In this document: positions 18,406 to 64,000 of the stretch, one piece after another | How positions within the stretch are numbered: position 1 is the first letter of the stretch | Layout of the letters: each line of letters opens with the position of its first letter | Source of the DNA: Candidatus Binatia bacterium | GTDB taxonomy: Bacteria; Desulfobacterota; Binatia; HRBIN30 | Length of the DNA stretch: 64,000 nt | Assembly: GCA_038245295.1 (NCBI GenBank) | Contig: JBBRSP010000001.1 | Coordinates: 392,632 to 456,631 of the forward strand | Direction: 5' to 3' | Program-made: the position numbers and the translations under genes | Notes under the pieces: model-generated | What the model was told of the DNA's origin: nothing | The model's input: only the letters and a program-made list of their open reading frames with translations | Databases searched by the model: none

Positions 18406-18496
18406 ACCTCCGTCATTCCGGCGGAAGCCGGGATCTCCTCGAGTGGAAGGCCAAAAATGCTGGGGAGATACCGGCTTTCGCCGGTATGACGGAGGT
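18406..18496. repeat. REP-like 33-bp inverted repeat pair
   Basis: ACCTCCGTCATTCCGGCGGAAGCCGGGATCTCC (18406-18438) vs reverse complement of 18464-18496; 30/33 match. Confidence 0.85.
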
Positions 18497-18622
18497 GTTT
18501 GGGCAGCTTCAAACGATGAATCAGAGAAAATCGACAGTCTCTTTCGCCGGTTTGACGGAAAGGTGTGCTCGGTTTCGAATTTGGTTTCCGAGTAAATCGC
18601 CAGTCTCTTTCGTCGGGATGAC
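18462..18622. repeat. Degenerate 66-bp tandem repeat
   Basis: CTTTCGYCGGNWTGAC starts at 18475, 18541 and 18607; 29-mers at 18528 and 18594 match 25/29. Confidence 0.7.
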
Positions 18623-27728: not shown

Positions 27729-29360
27729 TTATGTATGCGTCGGCAGACGTCGCAAGCCGAGCAGACCGACGAGGGTGAGCGAGGCGGCCAGCGCGAGTAT
27801 CATCCCCGGCGACAGGGCCGGTGCCGGCGCGGATCGGCTGACGAGAATGACCGCTCCCACCTGTCCTGGCGGCGTTCCCAAGCAACTATCGATGACGTAG
27901 ATCGGCTCGCCGCCCACGAGCGGACGTGTCAGCGTAATCGAGAAGAAGCCGGCGGCGCTGGTGCCACCCTGGCCGAGGACGTTGTCGTCGCCGTTTTGGC
28001 AGATGCGGTCGGTCCCGCAGTCCATGATCCGGATGCAGGTACTGGCCTCGTTCGGCGCGCCGCGCCCGGTGACGACGGTTGAACCTGCCGTTGCGCCGCC
28101 CGTGATACTCGGTCCCACAGGGGTCGGGCTTGGTGTCGCCGTCGCGGAGCTCGTTGGTGTTGCCGTCGTCGTAGTTGTCGGCGTGATGGTTGGCGTGTCG
28201 GTCGGTGTACCGGTCGGCGTCTTCGTTGCGGTTACCGTCGCCGTGGTTGTCGGCGTTTGCGTCGGCGTGCTGGTCGAAGTCACGCTTGGCGTCGTCGTCG
28301 GCGTTTGCGTCGCGGTCTCCGTCGGCGTGCTCGTCGGTGTTTCCGTCGGCGTGGTCGTCGGGGTCTCCGTGGGCGTCGTTGTCGGGGTTTCCGTCGGCGT
28401 GTCGGTTGGCGTCGTTGTCGGCGTATCCGTCGGCGCCGTGGCTTCGAAGCCCGTGGCGAAGGAATTGGCGGTTGTTGCGGCGCCGGTGTTGTTGACGATC
28501 ATCGAGACGTCGTCGACGTAGAATCCTTGATGGGTTGGGTAGTCGTTGAAGCTATTCGACCACTTGATGCTGGTGCCCGGCGAGTACGGGCTGGCGTTGC
28601 AGTGGTTGAGCTGGTGCACCCAAACCGCGTCGGTGTCGGTCACTGTCACCTGGCCGCCCGTGCCTTCATCGATGACATAGGTGGTTGATCCGTAGGTGGA
28701 GAGGTCCGACGGTGTGACGTTCGGGTAGGTCGTCGTCATTTTCACCGTGTGCCAGGTGCCCGCCGCCACCGTGGTGAGGACAATCTCGGGAAAGTCCTGG
28801 TTCATGCAATCATCGGTGGAAGACAGGTGAAAGCGAGACAGTGTGACGTCCACGAGCGAGGTTGCCGTAATGTACAGGTTGCCGCCGGTACGCGACGGGT
28901 CGGCGAGGTCGCGGTTGCCTTCGTAGACGTTGAACCGCGAACCATCCCCCGGGGCAACTGCCCTGAACGCAAACGAGATGATCGACTGATCGCCGGCGGG
29001 TGTCACCGGGCTGTTGCCGCCGGCACCGAATGCCGTGGCCGCATTGGGAGCGCCGACGGTCGCGACGTAGGGCGTGAACGGCGGACCTGAACCAGGGCTG
29101 CCGTAGCTTCCGCTGTAGCGCCACGACTGTGTTCCGTTGAAAGCGTCGGTGTTCGCAACCACGTCGGAGTTGGCGTTGTTGTTGGTGAAACCCTGGGCGA
29201 CAATCCCGGCGTCCCAGCCGTTCTGAAGGCTCAGGTCGCCAAGACTGTACGGGGTGAACGCCGATGCCGGCCGGATGAAGGACCCGGTGGAAAGGATTAG
29301 CGCAACAGCAAGGACAAGCCGGCTCAGTGCGGGCTCGCGTCGATTGTGAACAGGGTGCAT
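27729..29360 (-). CDS. Secreted/surface protein with Pro-Thr linker and C-terminal sorting signal (IPTL-CTERM-like)
   Basis: GGAGG RBS, signal peptide, beta-rich domain, ~110-aa PT repeat, APAPALS + TM helix + RR tail. Confidence 0.8.
28110..28440 (-). repeat. Coding tandem repeat encoding (PTxT)n linker
   Basis: [15 protein letters not shown]... in the translation, 12-bp periodicity. Confidence 0.9.
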
Positions 29361-52924: not shown

Positions 52925-53007
52925 CCCCGCGCCCGCGCCCGCCCGTGCCCGTGCCCCTGCCCGTGTTCGGACGCGGGCGGGGGCAGGGGCAGGGGCACGG
53001 GCGGGGG
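52925..53007. repeat. Palindromic GCCCNN/NNGGGC hexamer array
   Basis: C-rich hexamer run, short loop, G-rich hexamer run; no gene inside. Confidence 0.85.
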
Positions 53008-55194: not shown

Positions 55195-55229
55195 CGCCCC
55201 CGCCCCCGCCCCCGCCCGTGCCCGTGCCC
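55195..55229. repeat. GCCCNN hexamer run between convergent genes
   Basis: CGCCCCCGCCCCCGCCCCCGCCCGTGCCCGTGCCC. Confidence 0.8.
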
Positions 55230-55278
55230 ACGTCAGATCCGGATCCGTCTCTAACTTCTACGCAGGCGAGGGCGGAGG

Positions 55279-56979
55279 CTACGCCTTCATCTCATACGCT
55301 CCATCGAGAGCCAGCACATGCTCTTTCCAGACCGCGTCGTAACGTCGCGCGTCTCCAGCCGGCTTCTTGATCATCTGCAGGCAGAGTCGCATCTGCTCCG
55401 GCGTGCTGTTCGGCTTGTTGTGCAGCTGCAGCGCGAACTCGGAAAAGTCGCGGACGAGGAAGTCGAAGATCTGATCGATGACATCGGTTGCCGTCTCGTA
55501 GATGCGCGCGTTCTCCAGAATGAGCTGAGCGTAGACCACGAGCGCGAACAGCTCACCGCCGCTCAGCAGGAAGTCGGTATCCTTCATCTGGTCGCCATTC
55601 GGAGGAGCACTGGCGAGCATCTCACGGAAGGCGTCGACCTGTTCGGCGAACACCTTGACGTTGGGTTGATCGAAGGACGCGAGAACGGTGCGATAGTCGT
55701 GGAAGCGGATACTGCTGAGTCCTTTGGCGGCACCCTGCTCAAACAGGAAATCGTCGTTCGTCGCGTCGTCGCGCCGCGGCACAGCCGGAAAATCGGCGGG
55801 GGCGAAGAAAAAGTTCGGCATGAACTTTAAGATCAGGGCGATGTTGACATGCACTGTGCCCTCGAGTTTGGGCAGGCCGCGAATTTCGACGGCGGCTTGT
55901 TCGAAGTACATGCTCTTTTCGAACCCCTTGGCGGCGATGACGTCCCACAGCAGATTGATGACCCGTTCACCTTCCGTGGTGACCTTCATCTTGACCATCG
56001 GATTGTAGAGCAGGTAGCGGCGGTCGTCGGCCGAGGCGCTGCGCATGTAGTCGCAGGCGCGCAGGGCGAACAGCTTCATGGCCACCAGGCGCGCGTAGGC
56101 ATCGACGAACATGCGCTTGACGTGCGGGAAGTCGGTGACGCGCATCTTATAGAGGTGGCGATTGTGCGCGTGGGCGACGGCTTCGTAGAGCGCGTGGGTG
56201 CAGATGCCGATCGAGGCCCAGCCGAGATTGTACTTGCCGATATTGACCGTGTTGAGCGCGGCGTCCCAGGCGGCGCGGCCTTTGTGCAGGATATCGGCTT
56301 CGGTCAGCGGGTAATCGCGCAGCTCGAACTCGGAGACATAGTTCTGGCTGGCGACGACGTTCTGCTTGCACTCGTAGTTCTTGTGCGTCGAGTCGGCGGC
56401 GAAGAAGACGTAGTCGTCGGAGCCGGCGAGCTTTCCGAAGGTAGAGACGATGGCCGCCTTGTTGCCGTTGCCGATGTAGTACTTGCTGCCGCTGGCGCTG
56501 TAGACGCCTTCGTCGCGCGGCGTCAGGATCATATCGGTGGAGTAGATGTCGGCGCCGTGTGTCTTCTCCGACAGACCGAAGGCGAAGATGCCGCCCTCGT
56601 CGAGCAACCGCGCCGCCCGCTGCTTGATCGCTTCGTTGTCGCTCATCCAGATCGGCCCAAGCCCGAGCACGGAGACCTGCCAGGTGTACCAATAACCGAG
56701 CCCGTAGAAGCCAAGGATCTCGGCAAACTCGCAGATGCGCCAGGTATCCCAGCGCGAATCGGCCGCCCCGTAGCCGGCCGGCGTGCACATCGTCGCGAAG
56801 ATCTTCTCGCGCTTCACAAAGTCGAGGAAGTCGGCGTACCAGACCTGGGCGTGGTAATCCTCCTTGAGGCGGCGCTTGCCCTTGGCTTCGAAGAACGCAA
56901 TCGTCTTCTGCATCACCTGCTGCGAGCGATTGTCGGAATAGGCGCGCGGGCCACGCTTCGGGTTCAATAGGATTTCCAA
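55279..56979 (-). CDS. Acyl-CoA dehydrogenase family protein
   Basis: AFGLSE..GAD, GSKYYIGNG, KLEGT; GGAGG before TTG start. Confidence 0.9.
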   Translation of the reverse strand: MEILLNPKRGPRAYSDNRSQQVMQKTIAFFEAKGKRRLKEDYHAQVWYADFLDFVKREKIFATMCTPAGYGAADSRWDTWRICEFAEILGFYGLGYWYTWQVSVLGLGPIWMSDNEAIKQRAARLLDEGGIFAFGLSEKTHGADIYSTDMILTPRDEGVYSASGSKYYIGNGNKAAIVSTFGKLAGSDDYVFFAADSTHKNYECKQNVVASQNYVSEFELRDYPLTEADILHKGRAAWDAALNTVNIGKYNLGWASIGICTHALYEAVAHAHNRHLYKMRVTDFPHVKRMFVDAYARLVAMKLFALRACDYMRSASADDRRYLLYNPMVKMKVTTEGERVINLLWDVIAAKGFEKSMYFEQAAVEIRGLPKLEGTVHVNIALILKFMPNFFFAPADFPAVPRRDDATNDDFLFEQGAAKGLSSIRFHDYRTVLASFDQPNVKVFAEQVDAFREMLASAPPNGDQMKDTDFLLSGGELFALVVYAQLILENARIYETATDVIDQIFDFLVRDFSEFALQLHNKPNSTPEQMRLCLQMIKKPAGDARRYDAVWKEHVLALDGAYEMKA

Positions 56980-57153: not shown

Positions 57154-58281
57154 ATGGGTGATGCAGAACGGGTGACTACCGCGCCCACATCACCGCGTGT
57201 TACCGGCGTGTGCCACGTCTTTCTCGCCTACGATGTCGGTTTGGCGATCGACCTGAGTGGCGCCGAACGGCACATCAAGGCGGAGCGTGAAACACTGCGC
57301 CACAAACGCCGCGCCCCGCCGTATTTCGAATATCGACCGGCGCCGCTGCGGGTTTCGCAGGTGGGTGATCCGGTGGAGGTTGGCGAGCAACGCACCGCCG
57401 CGACCGTCGACATCGTCTTGTACGACTTCGGCGCCTTGTCAGTCGAGTACCGCCTGCCATTCGACACGACGTTGACCGAGCTCGTGGCCCTGAGTGCCGC
57501 GTTATCCGGTCACCCGGCGCTTCTCGCCGATTCGCGCCAACGCGTGGCGCGTCTGTCGCCGGTTCTGGCGCCGGCGATCAGCCAGCCGATGATCGCCGAC
57601 TTCGTTGAGCCGTATGCGGTCTTCGAGATCAACGACAGCACACCGGCGGCTCGCCCGGAGGATTTCTATACCCTGCAGGCCGATGTGGTGGCCGAGATCT
57701 TGCGCTCGGAATGCCAGCCCTTGTCGAAGGAGGAGGTCGAAGACGCGTTGAACCACCGCATCGCCTATGGCGTGGACGATGTCGTCCTGATCGATTGGGA
57801 CAGCGCGTTGCTGTTTGGCGAGGACATGGACGATGTCCTGGCTGTGCTCGAGTTCGCCAACGTAGAGTTGCTGGAGATGCGCTTCTTGGATCAGCGTCTC
57901 GATGACGCGCTCGAAGAGGCCTACGGATCGCTGACGCGCGACTCGTGGCACGGCATCCCGCTACCAGGCCTGGCGCGCCGCGCCTTGCGTCGCGTGGCGC
58001 AGCTGCAGATTGACAACGCCTTGCTGTTCGAGGGCGTCAACAACGCGCTCAAGCTACTCGGTGATCAGTATCTGGCGCGCCTGTATCGCCTCGCCTCGCG
58101 GCGCTTCCACCTGGATGAGTGGGACAGCAGCATCCTGCGCAAATTGCACGTGCTAGAGAGCATCTACGAAAAAATGTCGGACGCCTCGACCAACCGCCGC
58201 ATGGAAGTCCTCGAGTGGATCGTGATCCTGCTGATTGCGACGGAGATCGGCATCGCGTTGCTACCGGGACTGTCACGTTAG
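57154..58281 (+). CDS. Hypothetical membrane protein, RMD1/DUF155-like
   Basis: C-terminal MEVLEWIVILLIATEI; start uncertain because the upstream extension is hexamer repeat. Confidence 0.65.
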   Translation: MGDAERVTTAPTSPRVTGVCHVFLAYDVGLAIDLSGAERHIKAERETLRHKRRAPPYFEYRPAPLRVSQVGDPVEVGEQRTAATVDIVLYDFGALSVEYRLPFDTTLTELVALSAALSGHPALLADSRQRVARLSPVLAPAISQPMIADFVEPYAVFEINDSTPAARPEDFYTLQADVVAEILRSECQPLSKEEVEDALNHRIAYGVDDVVLIDWDSALLFGEDMDDVLAVLEFANVELLEMRFLDQRLDDALEEAYGSLTRDSWHGIPLPGLARRALRRVAQLQIDNALLFEGVNNALKLLGDQYLARLYRLASRRFHLDEWDSSILRKLHVLESIYEKMSDASTNRRMEVLEWIVILLIATEIGIALLPGLSR

Positions 58282-58424
58282 CGGTCCGTTGATTGGCTGG
58301 CGAACCCTTGACGGCACCCACAACCCAGGCAAGGGCAGGGGCAGGGGCGCGGGCGGGGTGGAAAACACCATCGCCGCGATCCTTCACCAGGACATCAAGA
58401 ATCGTTAGTAAGGATCGCGCACAC

Positions 58425-58509
58425 GCCGGGGTGGTGGAATTGGCAGACACAAGGGACTTAAAATCCCTTGAGACTTAGTCTCGTGCGGGTTCAAGTCCCG
58501 CCCTCGGCA
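58425..58509 (+). tRNA. tRNA-Leu (anticodon TAA), CCA not encoded
   Basis: Acceptor GCCGGGG/CCTCGGC, D arm GTGGAATTGGCAGACAC, anticodon arm AGGGA-CTTAAAA-TCCCT, long variable arm, T arm GCGGG-TTCAAGT-CCCGC, discriminator A. Confidence 0.96.
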
Positions 58510-58510
58510 T

Positions 58511-58710
58511 TCCCCCGCGCCCGCGCCCCTGCCCCCGCCTGCGTTTGTAGGGCCGAACTGGATCGAGATCTTTCCGATGTCGGGCAGGGGCGCGGGCGGG
58601 GGCAGGGGCGGGGGTTTAATGCATCCACTGCAGTCATTGATCCGGCACGGGAGGTTGACACTCTGATCGACATGAAACCCTTCGACCATGAGAAGCTGGA
58701 CGTCTATCGC
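58511..58710 (+). repeat. Hexamer-palindrome + leader + four-helix-bundle start module (other copies ~59030-59212 and 63912->64000)
   Basis: GCCCCCGCCyGCGTTTGT..GGATyGArATsTTTCCGATGT..G-rich hexamers..AATGCATCCACTGCAGTC..ATCGACATGAAACCCTTCGAyCATGA. Confidence 0.85.
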
Positions 58711-59082
58711 GCCGCATTGGCGTTCGTTCGATCGGCGAAGCGTCTCCGGCCGAAGCTGGTTCCTGGAAACGCCGAGCTCGCCGACCAACTCGACCGCGCC
58801 GCGTTGTCGGTCGTGCTCAACATCGCCGAGGGGGCAGGTGAGTTCGCCAGGCGAGAGAAGGCACGCTTCTATCGGATGGCCAGACGATCGGCGACCGAGT
58901 GCGCCGCGACGTTGGACGTTGCGCGCGAGCTCGGGTTGATCGAGCCCAGCGTGATCGATGCCGAGAAACGGAGCCTGTGGTCGATCGTTGGGATGCTGGT
59001 CGCGTTGGCAAAATCACTGGAATCACGTCCCCACCCCCCGCCCGTGCCCCCGCCCGCGTTTGTCGAGGGCGAGCCGGATTGA
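58672..59082 (+). CDS. Four helix bundle protein (23S rRNA IVP / bAvd-like fold family)
   Basis: FDHEKLDVY, LADQLDRAALSVVLNIAEG, RFYRMARRSATEC. Confidence 0.9.
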   Translation: MKPFDHEKLDVYRAALAFVRSAKRLRPKLVPGNAELADQLDRAALSVVLNIAEGAGEFARREKARFYRMARRSATECAATLDVARELGLIEPSVIDAEKRSLWSIVGMLVALAKSLESRPHPPPVPPPAFVEGEPD

Positions 59083-59176
59083 AATGTTTCCGATGTGCGG
59101 GCGGGGGCGGGGGCGCGGGATGAATGCATCCACTGCAGTCCTTGATCCGGTACGGCAGGTCGACACTATAATCGAC

Positions 59177-59212
59177 ATGAAACCCTTCGATCATGAAAAG
59201 GTGGACGTCTAA
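59177..59212 (+). pseudogene. Truncated second four-helix-bundle start (MKPFDHEKVDV*)
   Basis: Near-identical to the first 11 codons of 58672, then TAA and unrelated sequence. Confidence 0.8.
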
Positions 59213-59438
59213 AGACTCCGCGCCGAACGAGGAGCTGGCTCGTGAAGTGGTGACGAAGCTCCAGCCGGGGCCGCGCCTCGAGAACGCCTGAGAATTCTTT
59301 GGCGTCGAGCGTGCCGCGCAGTATGTCCGCCAGAGTTTCTATCGCGGCGTCCAGAGGCTGGATGCGGCGCACGTGTATGTCGGCCAGAAGGCTGATTACG
59401 TGTCTTGTGTTCCAACCTCAAACAAACGACGTTGTCAC

Positions 59439-62048
59439 ATGAAATCGAAATGGACGAACCTCGCGGTGGTTTCACTTCTGCTCGCCACCACGATCGCCTC
59501 TGGGCGGGCTCAAACGAATGGCTGGACGTTGGTTGGTTGGAACAACCTCGGGATGCATTGCATGGACCCCGATTACTCGGTGTTCTCGCTGCTGCCTCCC
59601 TACAACACGATTCACGCCCAACTCATCGATCCGCAGGGACACTTCGTCATCAACCCTGCCGGTTTCACGGTTACCTACGAGGCGGTCGCCGACCCCTCGC
59701 GCTCGCTCAACACGACATCCGCCGGCAAGACCAACTTATGGGATCACCTGCTCGCCCTCTTCGGTGTGGCACTGCCGGTCGACAGCGGCCTGGCGGGCAA
59801 CAAGATGCCCGGTCTTGCGAATACTCCGCAGCCGATGTCCTTCGACGGCACTAGCGGCTGGTTCATCGCCGAAGGGATTCCGCTCACGCCCTACGACGAC
59901 ATGAGACTGAAAAATCCCTATCCGATGATGCGCCTGGTAGCTCGGGATCAATCCGGGCAGGTGCTGGCGACGACGGATATCGTGCTTCCCGTATCTACCG
60001 AAATGAGCTGTCTGACCTGTCACGCGTCCGGCTCCGGCCCAGCGGCGCAGCCGATCGGCGGCTGGGTCAACGATTCCGACCCAGAGCGCGACACGCGTCT
60101 GAACATTCTGCGTTTGCACGACGACCGTCAGGCCGGGGACAGTAAGTTCTCGACCGCGCTGGCAGCCGCCGGATACAATGCGGCCGGGCTTTACGTCACC
60201 GTAACCAACGACGGCAAGGCGATCCTGTGCGCCGGCTGCCATGCTTCGGCGGCGCTGGGCACGGCCGGGCTGGCCGGGACAAAGCCGCTGACTCAGGCGA
60301 TACACGGCCACCATGCCACGGTCATCGACCCGACGAGCGGCGTCAGCCTCGACGCCAGCAGCAACCGCTCGGCCTGTTATAGCTGCCATCCCGGTTCGGT
60401 TACGCGCTGCCTGCGCGGCGCGATGGGCTCTGCCGTGGCGGCAAACGGGTCGCTCGCCATCCAGTGTCAGAGCTGTCACGGCACCATGAGCGACCTTGCG
60501 GTCAGCACCCGCAGCGGCTGGCTCAACGAACCAGCATGCCAGAACTGTCACAGCGGCACCGCCGTCAGCAACAACGGGCAGATTCGCTATACCTCGGTGT
60601 TCGACGCGCCCGGTCATGTTCGGCAAGCCGTCGATCAAACCTTCGCTACCAACGCCGACACACCGGCGCCCGGCCTATCCTTGTACCGCTTCTCGACCGG
60701 GCACGGTGGAATCAAGTGCGAGGGTTGCCACGGTTCGACCCATGCGGAGTTCCCGAGCTTGCACCGCAACGACAACATTCAGAGCATTCAGCATCAAGGT
60801 CACGTCGGTATGTTCGCGGAGTGTACAAGTTGTCACGGGACGTCGCCGGTAACCGTAAGCGGGGGGCCACACGGCATGCACCCGGTTGGACAGGACTGGG
60901 TGAGTCGCCACGGCGGCCTCTTCGAAAGCGGGGGCGCCACTCGCTCGGCCTGCCAGGTGTGTCACGGGACTGACTATCGCGGCACAGTACTCTCCCGTTC
61001 CCAGGCAGATCGTCTCGTGTCGACGGAGGATTCTGGCAGCAAGTACCTATGGAGAGGGTTCCAGGTGGGTTGCTACACCTGCCACCTTGGTCCCAACAAT
61101 GGCGACGCGAATCCGAACCATCCCCCCACCGTGCAGGATACAGCAGCGTCCACGACGGCCGGGACTCCGATCTCTGTCGCGTTGACGGCGCAGGATAGCG
61201 ACCACAATGCGCTCACGCTGCGCGTCGTGTCGCAGCCGACCAACGGCTCGGTCGCGCTCAACGGCGCCGTCGCCAACTACATTCCCGCAGCCGGATTCCT
61301 TGGAACCGAGACCTTCACGTTTGCCGCCTCCGACGGTTCAAGCGATTCGAATCTCGGCACGGCGTCGGTTACGGTTGGTAGCGGCGGGACCTGCCCGCCG
61401 ATTAGCTGTGGGCATGGGGTTGCCAATGCCGTGTCCACACTGATCAAGGCCGTGGATCGCTGTCACACCAAGCTGGCGAGCGCGGCATACAGAGGCGCAA
61501 CCTTCGATCAAGAGGCATGCGAAAAAGGCGATCCGGTCAGATCTGCCAAGCGCAAGTTCGACGTCATGATCGCCAAGCATACGGTAGGATGTCCAGCCCA
61601 GGTGTTGACCAATGCCAACGCGCTGCGCGATGGGCTTCTAGATGGGCCGCAGTCTTTGGACGCATTGAACGGCAAGATCTACTGCGATGCCAGCTCGGGG
61701 CGCTTGCTCGAGCCGGGCGGTGAGGAAGAGGGCTTCGCGCCGGCCTCGTGGGCGGCGCTCAAGTGCACCGATGGCATCGTTAGCTATCTCAATAAGCTTG
61801 CCGACAGCGTCGTCACCTGCCAGCGCCGGTGGGCCGACGCCAGCACCACCAGCCACCCTCTCGACCTCCTCGCGTGCGAGACCACTGCCATCGGGAGAGC
61901 CATCGCGGCGCGCGACCGAGTCCTGCACAAGGGCGGCTGTCCCGCGTGTGTTGATCAGACGGGACAGGACAACCTGCGCAACACCCTGGTCGGACAGCTG
62001 AGTGCGCTGCGCCCGCTGATCTTTCTCTGTCCCGCGAGCCCACTCTGA
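59439..62048 (+). CDS. Secreted multiheme cytochrome c (9 CxxCH) with Ig-like and Cys-rich C-terminal domains
   Basis: Signal peptide, GWNNLGMHC; CLTCH, CAGCH, CYSCH, CQSCH, CQNCH, CEGCH, CTSCH, CQVCH, CYTCH; NHPPT..FTFAASDG Ig-like repeat. Confidence 0.9.
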   Translation: MKSKWTNLAVVSLLLATTIASGRAQTNGWTLVGWNNLGMHCMDPDYSVFSLLPPYNTIHAQLIDPQGHFVINPAGFTVTYEAVADPSRSLNTTSAGKTNLWDHLLALFGVALPVDSGLAGNKMPGLANTPQPMSFDGTSGWFIAEGIPLTPYDDMRLKNPYPMMRLVARDQSGQVLATTDIVLPVSTEMSCLTCHASGSGPAAQPIGGWVNDSDPERDTRLNILRLHDDRQAGDSKFSTALAAAGYNAAGLYVTVTNDGKAILCAGCHASAALGTAGLAGTKPLTQAIHGHHATVIDPTSGVSLDASSNRSACYSCHPGSVTRCLRGAMGSAVAANGSLAIQCQSCHGTMSDLAVSTRSGWLNEPACQNCHSGTAVSNNGQIRYTSVFDAPGHVRQAVDQTFATNADTPAPGLSLYRFSTGHGGIKCEGCHGSTHAEFPSLHRNDNIQSIQHQGHVGMFAECTSCHGTSPVTVSGGPHGMHPVGQDWVSRHGGLFESGGATRSACQVCHGTDYRGTVLSRSQADRLVSTEDSGSKYLWRGFQVGCYTCHLGPNNGDANPNHPPTVQDTAASTTAGTPISVALTAQDSDHNALTLRVVSQPTNGSVALNGAVANYIPAAGFLGTETFTFAASDGSSDSNLGTASVTVGSGGTCPPISCGHGVANAVSTLIKAVDRCHTKLASAAYRGATFDQEACEKGDPVRSAKRKFDVMIAKHTVGCPAQVLTNANALRDGLLDGPQSLDALNGKIYCDASSGRLLEPGGEEEGFAPASWAALKCTDGIVSYLNKLADSVVTCQRRWADASTTSHPLDLLACETTAIGRAIAARDRVLHKGGCPACVDQTGQDNLRNTLVGQLSALRPLIFLCPASPL

Positions 62049-62099
62049 GCAGGCCGTTGAGTGCTTGTGATCAATCAGTGCAGGCAAAAAGGCATCAAG

Positions 62100-62687
62100 A
62101 TGGAAATCAAAGTTCTGGGGTCGGGATGCAGCAAGTGCCGCAGCACGATCGGCATGATCGAGCGGGCTGCACTGGCATCGGGTGTCGAGGTGAACATCGT
62201 CAAGGTCGAGAAGCCCGAGGACATCCATCAATACGGCGTCCACGCGACGCCCGCGGTCCTCATCGGTGGCCAGGTCGTGCATGCTGGACGGATTCCTTCG
62301 CATGACAAAGTGCAAGCATGGCTGACGCCGAGCGCCATCGGCTTCCTGATGCAACCGACCCGACATCTATTCTTCACGGGAAAAGGCGGCGTCGGCAAGA
62401 CTTCGCTGTCAACTGCCGCTGCACTGACGCTGGCCGACGCCGGCAAGAAGGTTCTTCTGGTGAGCACGGACGCGGCGTCGAACCTGGACGAGATGCTGGG
62501 CGTCGAGCTGCGCAACACCCCGACGCCGGTGCCCGGCGCTCCCGGTCTGTGGGTCCTGAACATCGACCCCGACAACGCCGCCGAGTCCTATCGGCAGCCT
62601 GTCCTGGCGCAGATGGGGGGCGGCAAGCAGGACACCCATCTCCGCCCGGCGACAGTCCCGGAGAGGTCCGCTGATTTAAGACGCTGA
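62100..62687 (+). pseudogene. arsA: Truncated thioredoxin-like (MTH895-type)-ArsA ATPase fusion
   Basis: IKVLGSGCSKC...TPAV, then FFTGKGGVGKTS and LLVSTDAASNL; ArsA similarity ends near 62617 after ~95 aa. Confidence 0.8.
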
Positions 62688-62743
62688 TCGTACGTCACAA
62701 TCGCCGAGTCCTGTGGGTGGGTGTCCTCTGGATCGACCCCCTC

Positions 62744-63589
62744 CTATGCGACCGATGCAGCGACTTCGATGAACCTCAGGACGTTCAACGTCGCACGCCA
62801 ATCCGCCTTACCCAAGTCGGTGATCGTTGTCGGATCTCCTTTTCGCCAGCGCCAGCGGAGCGAGTCGCGACTCGGATCGACGCCTCGAGCGAATAGGAGG
62901 GATGCAGCTCCAGATTTTTTGCAGCCGGACCGCAGGTTCGGGGCGCAGCGCGGGGTTGGCGTTGCACTCGCGGTTGCTGTCAGCGTGGGTGTATTGGTCG
63001 GAGTGTTGCTCGGCGTCGGCGTTTGAGTCGGCGTCGGCGTCGGTGTCCTGGTCGGGGTCGACGTGGGCGTCTCTGTCGGCGTGTTGGTGGGACTTTCCGT
63101 AAGCGTCGACGTTGGCGACCGTGTCGGAGTGTATGTGATCCCGAAGTACGTAAACGTGCCGGGGGTCACAGCGGCGCCAACGTCTACTCCGGAGGATGTT
63201 ACAAAATCTACTGTAGTTGCAGTTACCGATGCGGACCCGTAGAACCCGGCACATGAACAACCCGAACTGTGATTCTGAATGGTGCAGTAGATAATAGTGC
63301 CATCAGGAATGATGCTTCCATCTCCGGAAGCGGAAACATGCATGTAGGGGGACTGGCTTTGTGTTGCCGCGAATCCAGCGATGCTTGAGCCGCAGTCTCT
63401 GAAGTCGGTGCATGCTCCGCACAAGGAACCACTTAGCTGGAAGTCCAACGTCGATATCCCAACGACGCTGGCGCCGTTCTTCGAGAGGGAGATCCCCAAT
63501 GACACCGATCCGCCTAGACCTGCGGAACCTGAACTGAACGCGACGCTGGTCTTCGGTTCATTCATCGACGCTGGCGAGCGACACGGCAA
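62744..63589 (-). pseudogene. Degraded secreted PT-linker protein
   Basis: Beta-rich Cys domain, PT linker, then start of a WRWRKG domain cut off after TDLG; no in-frame signal peptide. Confidence 0.6.
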
Positions 63590-63831
63590 CTAGTCCTGCG
63601 AAAGGGACACCGGCGAACCTGGACCCAGGAGCCTGGTGAATTGGGGTGGAAGGGGAGTCTTTTGCCGCATGTTGCGTCGCGTATACCCGACCCGATTCGC
63701 GGTCTCGACTGTGCCCGTAACTGTGCCCGCGGCGGTACTTACTCAGGCAAAACACGGCACAAGTCGACCATCGCCGTCCAACGTCAACCAACGGGAACCA
63801 CAACATGGGCAAGGGTTTTGCGGGTGAGAGC

Positions 63832-63910
63832 GCCGAGGGCGGGATGTTTGGTTCGGACTTGAAATCCCTTGAGACTTAGTTTCGTGCGGGTTCAAGTCCC
63901 GCCCTCGGCA
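63832..63910 (+). pseudogene. tRNA-Leu 3'-half copy (att-like) with TGA in the anticodon loop and a non-tRNA 5' part
   Basis: GGACTTGAAATCCCTTGAGACTTAGTTTCGTGCGGGTTCAAGTCCCGCCCTCGGCA; no valid D arm. Confidence 0.8.
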
Positions 63911-64000
63911 TTCCCCCGCGCCCGCGCCCCTGCCCCCGCCTGCGTTTGTAGGGCCGAACTGGATCGAGATCTTTCCGATGTCGGGCAGGGGCGCGGGCGG

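Follow-up and report, generated by a model that had tools for sequence, protein, structure and literature searches.

We analysed a 64,000-nt stretch of DNA (the window; positions 392,632 to 456,631 of contig JBBRSP010000001.1, here C1, in assembly GCA_038245295.1 of Candidatus Binatia bacterium, lineage HRBIN30) in which a gene for a four-helix-bundle protein of the family PF05635 stands behind tRNA-Leu(TAA), with a hairpin of tandem GCCYNN hexamers on either side. Close relatives of this gene in many bacterial phyla are flanked by arrays with the same six-nucleotide period, and genes from other clades of the family often carry arrays of period 7. We consider it likely that the gene and its repeats spread together as a selfish cassette, as had been proposed in a preliminary description made from the sequence alone.

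The repeat period follows the protein clade

The clade was represented by the best 80 of at least 371 confirmed relatives in GTDB, sharing 49-62% identity and including several loci from one genome; their hosts belong to Planctomycetota, Chlamydiota, Pseudomonadota, Myxococcota and Acidobacteriota, among others. Arrays of period 6 were found in 98 of the 157 scorable 200-nt flanks of these loci (three flanks shorter than 100 nt were excluded from array scoring), compared to 28 of 1351 control windows. An array of some kind was present at 65 of the 80 loci, with period 6 at 61 of those 65, and period-6 arrays also occurred in 25 of the 32 clade loci with a GC content below 47%. Across phyla, at protein identities of 50-62%, and also in AT-rich hosts, the arm unit persists while the spacers turn over.

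At 30 loci from other clades, which were the best PF05635 hits among 40 relatives and were sampled differently from the 80, period 7 was found in 29 of 57 flanks, period 8 in five and period 6 in two (controls, 2/167). A quick tree built from 114 rows placed 83 of them on a single branch (SH-aLRT 100), with 64 period-6 rows, one period-7 row and one period-8 row; since the rows were chosen by similarity, this is a contrast between sets and not a count of independent changes. Moreover, three genomes (G000, which is the genome under study, G004 and G038) each carry both kinds of gene, each gene with its own period, indicating that host composition does not explain the period.

An inverted match across the gene was detected at 49 of 77 loci and in none of 178 controls, and the commonest layout was a C-rich arm, the gene and a G-rich arm (34/80). 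The hairpin-gene-hairpin form seen in the window is a minority, yet it can be folded alike, as nested stems around the gene. The stems showed no strand bias under a strict alignment, which replaced a looser one with a poor control (12/56).

Judged by eye, cassettes with heptamer or octamer arms at L001, L003, L004, L006, L009, L010, L012, L015, L021 and L023 seem to lie inside frames that we take to encode DNA methyltransferases or dnaE2-like polymerases, and several of these split-gene cassettes appear at the same spot in different genera.

Gene-less arrays mainly accompany the gene

The genome under study (6.63 Mb, 96.6% complete, contamination 3.35%, 5179 genes called with a simple gene caller) holds 101 hexamer arrays with at least four anchors, and 2 Mb of order-5 Markov simulation holds none, indicating that the arrays are not due to chance. 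In total 142 array sites were recorded, 121 of them outside called genes. Arrays on both sides were found for only seven of the 5179 genes; three of these are the three intact clade genes, in keeping with the co-location anticipated in the preliminary description, and two are neighbours of the locus in the window. Arrays also occur beside toxin-antitoxin-like pairs. The 6 kb upstream of tRNA-Leu(TAA) contain four gene-less sites where 0.13 would be expected; the genome has no other cluster of this kind, and this one was noted post hoc.

Across 41 related genomes, all five with a clade gene have 18-188 pattern hits; among the 36 without one, three have 17-42 hits, one has 8 and the rest have 0-2 (Fisher P 7e-5, a value overstated by kinship). 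Similarly, among 81 Gemmataceae genomes, hits at three or more places were found only in the two with a clade gene (E below 1e-50), although raw hit counts in this family are inflated by overlapping hits. In genome G194, the dispersed arrays have the same CCCGTT variant as the flanks of its gene. A further 150 genomes from across the phylum yielded one protein match at 1e-30, in a genome with no GCCYNN hits and a different hexamer in the flanks of the gene; the other 149 have at most 12 hits. G001 has 53 matches to the reversed hexamer pattern and one to the pattern itself, and the former probably represent another hexamer family.

The hexamer unit is common to these arrays and the spacer is not, so the gene-less arrays are not simple copies of the cassette: 114 of the 142 sites have no spacer or flank family in common with another site, the largest family comprises seven sites, all at the locus in the window, and the spacer of its module occurs only there. 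The suggestion that gene-less palindromes are non-autonomous derivatives is thus supported only in part, by the unit, which tracks the gene across genomes, and not by the spacers and flanks.

Filled and empty sites

A comparison of filled and empty sites, as called for by the preliminary description, was possible in Gemmataceae between two genes that we take, from their sequences, to be apt and hisI, where some genomes have the cassette and others do not. Thirty of 70 hisI hits plus L060 were surveyed, giving 22 junctions with apt upstream: three hold the cassette, nine measure at most 48 nt, four contain gene-less palindromes of 7-9-nt units, four have other inserts and two are short and unclassified. 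Two of the three filled junctions had been chosen because they contain the cassette. The filled junctions differ in unit variant, with both arms changed together.

Repeat palindromes also surround other genes of the genome under study. Both GxxExxY genes (PF13366, an unrelated predicted nuclease; C12:78323-78667 and C10:198-539) have palindromic arrays of 9-10-nt units on either side. By eye, five other PF05635-like genes (C49:3147, C25:57777, C4:206154, C14:96570 and C12:162953) each have their own 7-9-nt repeat arms, and no arms are evident at a further one (C25:81193).

These palindromes might be mobile alone or via another enzyme, such as the GxxExxY nuclease or a Y1 tyrosine transposase, with the four-helix-bundle gene being cargo that keeps its arms by common descent. 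We regard this as unlikely. The gene-less palindromes with other units at four of the 22 apt-hisI junctions, the position of the GxxExxY genes between palindromes, the arrays adjoining toxin-antitoxin-like pairs and five Y1 transposase hits in the genome all agree with it, but GCCYNN arms were found at none of the two GxxExxY and five Y1 loci, the protein is under purifying selection (see below), and hitch-hiking would not easily keep the unit across phyla and in AT-rich hosts while the spacers turn over.

Features of the protein

The gene product scores above the curated cut-offs of TIGR02436 (64.4 bits; cut-off 24) and PF05635 (67.7; 33.8), and Pfam gives PF05635 only. The predicted model has four long helices (pLDDT 97) and matches pentameric Xcc0516 (2gsc) with a TM-score of 0.93 and an rmsd of 1.4 at 30% identity; it also matches BT_0352 (2rld) and, weakly, Avd (TM 0.79, 8% identity, Foldseek E 0.18). 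By analogy to 2gsc and Avd, the protein likely forms a homopentameric ring. In Avd, all five protomers contact one RNA stem-loop (10.1101/2023.10.23.563531). Arms in the flanks most often have 4-5 units, and in this genome the counts fall steeply beyond 6, which hints weakly at one unit for each protomer.

The protein is under purifying selection, with dN/dS of 0.025/0.184 between the copy in the window and a second copy on contig C53 (73 codons) and of 0.033/0.405 for a pair of genes on contig C44. In 52 clade proteins, R65, R68 and R72 are invariant and K63 is near-invariant. The hexamer clade is marked by E57 together with K63/R65/Y67/R68/R72; in the heptamer-associated set, position 57 is mostly R and basic residues are not conserved.

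Organisation of the locus behind tRNA-Leu(TAA)

The module, the intact gene, the stub and the restart at 63912 that had been described for the window are all present (Table 1).

Table 1. Features at and around tRNA-Leu(TAA), in window coordinates.
Feature	Position	Strand	Remarks
Gene-less hexamer hairpin	52941..53002		own short spacer
Gene-less hexamer hairpin	55196..55279		between convergent stop codons
Gene-less C-rich arm	57051..57072		
Gene-less G-rich arm	58327..58354		upstream of tRNA
tRNA-Leu(TAA)	58425..58509	+	ARAGORN; Rfam RF00005; module 1 starts 1-2 nt past its 3' end
Module 1	58511..58614	+	C-rich GCCYNN arm, spacer, G-rich arm (hairpin)
Conserved leader, 57 nt	58615..58671	+	between module 1 and gene ATG 58672
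Four-helix-bundle gene (PF05635/TIGR02436), 136 aa	58672..59082	+	residues 1-117, domain; rest, tail
Module 2, second hexamer hairpin	59029..59121	+	direct repeat of module 1, 505-nt period
Second leader and 11-codon stub of older gene copy	59122..59212	+	stub 59177-59212, ATG 59177
Cargo: multiheme cytochrome c / Ig-like domain protein, secreted	59373..62048	+	Pfam PF14522, PF14537, PF17963
Cargo: thioredoxin-like domain fused in frame to ArsA-type ATPase start, cut short	62100..62687	+	TIGR00412; TIGR04291 positions 2-85 of 565
Two 10-nt direct repeats, 12-nt period	63708..63729	+	presumably like integrase arm-type sites
tRNA-Leu 3' half copy, anticodon arm onward (attR-like)	63855..63910	+	96% identity, 56 nt
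Module 3, identical to module 1	63912..64000	+	cut by contig end; goes on in contig C53

The spacer of module 1 begins with GCGTTTGT at 58541 and ends with TTTCCGATGT at 58571. Module 2 overlaps the last codons of the gene, as had been noticed before: the frame reads through into it, giving the C-terminus PPPVPPPAFVEGEPD. The second leader and stub are 89% identical to copy 1 across 115 nt. Only two modules adjoin the tRNA, where three had been described, and the third lies 5.4 kb away. Three independent insertions were ruled out, the third copy lying within a duplication of the tRNA end and the second being a decayed tandem duplicate.

The leader sequence GCAGTCATTGATC is common to this locus and both distant gene copies on contig C44. 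Its spacing, TTGATC-16 nt-CAnnnT-6/7 nt-ATG, read by eye, suggests a leaderless promoter; a consensus scan of 58280-59450 gave no sigma-70 promoter or intrinsic terminator. As a genome-wide signal, GCAGTCAT is not enriched (45 observed, 33 expected). A motif resembling ATGCA..GCAGTCATTG at 58630-58642 also occurs in intergenic DNA at C42:685, C46:24798, C5:106520 and C18:38674, upstream of cassette genes, a Y1 transposase and other genes; its 8-mer is not enriched genome-wide.

Both hairpins fold strongly, at -76.2 kcal/mol for module 1 (z -4.7) and -63.2 kcal/mol for module 2 (z -4.1), with none of 200 shuffles as good. In the best fold of the whole cassette (-322.5 kcal/mol), nested long-range stems enclose the gene; the value is -311.9 kcal/mol if those pairs are forbidden.

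Elsewhere in the window, 12-nt-period repeats were observed at 28116-28459 and 62936-63129, the second encoding a Pro/Thr-rich linker. Two abundant REP-like families, around GTAGGCGCAGGC and GCCGGTATGACG, occur at 18475-18606 and genome-wide, with about 300-400 intergenic matches per 8-mer.

Duplication of the tRNA end and a second gene copy

Module 3 lies in an attR-like block, since the 3' half of the tRNA (56 nt) and the two 10-nt direct repeats precede it. The tRNA half-copy and module 3 together are 99% identical to their counterparts over 146 nt, as far as the window end, which is also the end of contig C1. A direct repeat of the tRNA 3' end (63855-63910) thus bounds other genes, as in tRNA-integrated islands. 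None of the 11 PF00589 (tyrosine integrase) matches in the genome lies in the 5.4 kb between the repeats, in C53 or in C44, a search that left serine recombinases aside. A 13-nt inverted copy of the tRNA-Leu 3' end at 63832-63844, just before the direct half-copy, could pair with it.

The tail of C1 is identical to the first 108 nt of contig C53. There the leader runs into a second copy of the gene, which breaks off after 73 codons; on the far side of a 13.5-kb stretch with other genes, the last codons of the gene appear together with a fourth module. The intervening 13.5 kb encodes, among others, a P-type ATPase, a Fic-domain protein and a methyltransferase, and arsenic-type genes related to the ArsA fusion in the window are apparently also on C53. 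The repeat covers about 380 nt, reaching across the module and leader into the gene. A comparison of the two gene copies shows 14 differences in 271 positions, of which 12 fall within the final 90 nt; such a mosaic pattern suggests that recombination was anchored on the side near the tRNA. Among the tRNA-Leu(TAA) trailers of family genomes, 0 of 15 have the module or the gene.

The preliminary description had raised the possibility that the repeated modules are an assembly artefact, and module 3 does stand at a contig end and is identical to module 1. This explanation is largely refuted and hardly credible: in the unitig graph of run X1, which is possibly the source, a shared 322-nt piece has two unitigs leading into it and two leading out, all at a single-copy depth of 8-12.5; the gene copies differ at the 14 positions noted above; and runs X2 and X3, from other samples of the same study, contain 58804-59185 and 58988-59190 without any difference. 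Module 2, the stub and the C53 variant are present in these two samples. The copies are real, and their phasing is unproven, as the contigs cannot tell which entry unitig joins which exit.

Arrays at other tRNA genes

The same arrangement recurs on contig C44, where a hairpin-gene-hairpin cassette lies behind tRNA-Leu(GAG), antisense to it. Its gene belongs to the same clade (55% protein identity) and its hexamers are GCCT-rich; the cassette is repeated 5.7 kb on, behind 26 nt of tRNA end. By the assembly (contamination 3.35%), C44 presumably belongs to the same organism. At tRNA-Glu(TTC) on C4 there is a version of 1.2 kb that includes a toxin-antitoxin-like pair and what remains of the 3' end of the gene. 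A gene-less module lies at tRNA-Leu(CAG) in this genome, and G004 and G038 have modules and gene there. By a strict pattern, hexamer arrays begin within 60 nt of four of 49 tRNA calls, against 0.12% of random windows (P ~6e-4 versus the intergenic background), and arrays were seen by eye behind two further tRNA-Leu genes. This preference is confined to the lineage. For the clade as a whole, a rule of tRNA targeting was rejected, since a tRNA lies within 3 kb in only four of the 60 loci scanned of the 80.

Other short-period arrays (7-9 nt) were seen by eye right behind the tRNA genes Arg-CCT (C3), Ser-TGA (C8), Ser-GGA (C35), Glu-CTC (C34) and Arg-CCG (C69). Between the four-helix-bundle gene and tRNA-Leu(CAG) at L032:3340-4480, whole hairpin modules lie in tandem runs that have an addiction-module antitoxin gene between them. 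In L034, a module of 115 nt is present three times in tandem, with an end similar to a tRNA-Leu 3' end.

These positions bear on two further explanations. In the first, the protein would be an Avd-like reverse transcriptase partner, and the cassette and arrays would spread via an RNA intermediate. Arrays starting right at tRNA 3' ends (the four of 49 above), the fold shared with Avd and the reported rank of PF05635 as the commonest family beside diversity-generating retroelements (DGRs; PMC10053308) could be read in this way, and we nevertheless hold it to be very improbable: the 96.6%-complete genome has no PF00078 (reverse transcriptase) match, the likeness to Avd is as low as given above, and the tRNA-module junctions lack CCA, which does not fit priming by a mature tRNA.

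In the second, the arms would pair around the gene and RNase III would excise the cassette from a tRNA precursor or mRNA, as an intervening sequence (IVS) is excised, with the protein regulating hairpin-bearing transcripts for the host. RNase III cuts the IVS of Coxiella that carries an S23p gene (PMC4990558), the best fold of the cassette has nested long-range stems, the C-rich arm-gene-G-rich arm layout is the commonest, and 121 of the 142 array sites are intergenic. However, the C44 cassettes are antisense to their tRNA whereas this one is sense, the sense strand shows no bias of G-U over A-C, and presence is patchy (any hit at 1e-12 in 9 of 41 genomes, the clade gene in five). We therefore judge excision of this kind to be distinctly unlikely.

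A proposed semi-mobile cassette and the points against it

On balance we lean towards a semi-mobile cassette, in which the protein forms a ring and binds the repeat arms of its own clade, and host recombination or island integration moves the DNA. In single-stranded or cruciform nucleic acid, a five-membered ring would bind about five repeats of each arm; this binding would keep gene and unit paired and may allow the arms to give rise to gene-less hairpins at the 3' ends of genes and tRNAs. Cutting and joining would be done by host recombination or integrating islands, not by the protein. At the locus in the window, the cassette may have settled behind tRNA-Leu and then been duplicated in tandem, leaving the stub, and an island-type event, its integrase since lost from the locus, may have brought it in a second time along with the tRNA end. 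Of the selfish cassette first proposed, the unity of gene and palindromes stands, given the arrays on both sides, the arms in many phyla and the filled and empty site, and the three independent copies do not.

Several observations weigh against this semi-mobile cassette. No array was called at 15 of the 80 close loci, and some of these have long inverted repeats without tandem units; in L059, L087, L097 and L098, clade genes lie between such repeats, and by Rfam none of these four is in rRNA. Period 6 with other units flanks the non-clade genes L014, L030 and L159, the gene of G037 has period-5 arms, and G002, G015 and G033 are array-rich with no clade gene found. Arms of this kind also flank the unrelated GxxExxY genes and so may act as a general-purpose vehicle. 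Stem mismatches of G-U and A-C type are even (41 versus 46), favouring neither RNA nor DNA. The protein is without a known catalytic site, and sequence clustering of neighbouring frames gave no recurring nuclease or recombinase neighbour and no fixed partner gene among the 80 loci. By eye, no target-site duplication is evident at the filled/empty junction, where the empty sites, 75-84% related in flanking protein, are too distant to read one, and the three filled apt-hisI sites may descend vertically from a single old insertion. Finally, the genomes and loci are non-independent samples.

A wider proposal, which we put forward tentatively and would sooner expect to fail than to hold, is that PF05635 proteins are sequence-reading rings, each recognising its own short tandem unit, which are non-catalytic and seed and maintain palindromes of 6-9-base repeats. 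They would make up a class of selfish elements distinct from transposons, retroelements and REP/RAYT; rRNA intervening sequences and DGR Avd would have branched off from this class, and the hexamer clade would favour tRNA 3' ends in this lineage.

Comparison with known systems

The closest parallel by family is the IVS with an open reading frame (ORF) in 23S rRNA of Coxiella burnetii and Leptospira, which likewise is patchy and has a PF05635 gene within terminal inverted repeats. In C. burnetii, the terminal inverted repeats around the S23p/PF05635 ORF are able to form a long stem, and the element is described as patchy and horizontally acquired, with a decaying ORF (PMC4990558). The repeats in the window are also able to enclose the ORF. 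Here, unlike in the rRNA IVS, the arms consist of tandem hexamers and form a hairpin on each side, purifying selection acts on the gene, and the genome contains many dispersed arms without a gene. An rRNA intervening sequence was rejected, as Rfam gave only tRNAs at this locus and seven others.

In REPIN-RAYT systems, one or few genes are flanked by their own palindromes, many gene-less palindromes are intergenic, the repeat type is tied to the protein lineage, and local or tandem clusters occur (PMC3116915). The cassette shares this pattern: its cognate palindromes flank the gene and are also scattered through intergenic DNA. RAYT, by contrast, is a Y1 tyrosine transposase with catalytic activity (PMC3116915), and the protein here is without such a domain. 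In place of conserved REP doublets, the arms consist of short tandem repeats whose spacers are unrelated. A RAYT was rejected, because Pfam gives only PF05635, the five PF01797 loci are without these arms and no conserved doublet is copied as a unit.

Avd of DGRs (PDB 4dwl, 8ub7) has the four-helix-bundle fold, and its pentamer binds a stem-loop (10.1101/2023.10.23.563531); a DGR was rejected on the absence of PF00078 matches in the genome and the 8% identity to Avd. The closest solved structures are Xcc0516 and BT_0352; E57 and K63/R65/Y67/R68/R72 set the clade apart from the heptamer-associated set.

In tRNA-integrated islands, attL and attR duplicate the 3' end of the tRNA. The locus resembles them in that the 56-nt tRNA 3' half is repeated 5.4 kb downstream, behind arm-like repeats, and in its typical cargo; it differs in that about 380 nt are repeated, taking in module, leader and gene, and in that no tyrosine integrase lies between the repeats.

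Intergenic heptamer and octamer arrays of Xanthomonas, Nostoc, Beggiatoaceae and Geobacter consist of short tandem units, often in inverted pairs, and are reported as of unexplained origin (PMC4692102, PMC4679880, PMC2700814); the unit here is 6 nt. A term search of the main texts of these papers, with supplements outside its scope, gave no mention of 'helix bundle' or 'S23'. PF05635-type genes have been reported as strain-specific or inside cas loci (PMC8700078, PMC3936711). We found no published link of the family to tandem-repeat arms in a search that did not take in most subscription papers and supplements. New here are the hexamer clade, the genome-level co-occurrence in two lineages, the filled/empty site, the selection on the protein and the tRNA-end duplications.

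These findings connect the unexplained short-repeat palindromes seen in bacterial genomes with a protein family that is very common and has no known function. On this view, proteins of the hexamer and heptamer clades should prefer different repeats. If they do, the origin of such arrays would be explained, a role would be suggested for the ancestor of DGR Avd and rRNA IVS proteins, and the family would offer a natural series of repeat-specific nucleic-acid-binding rings.

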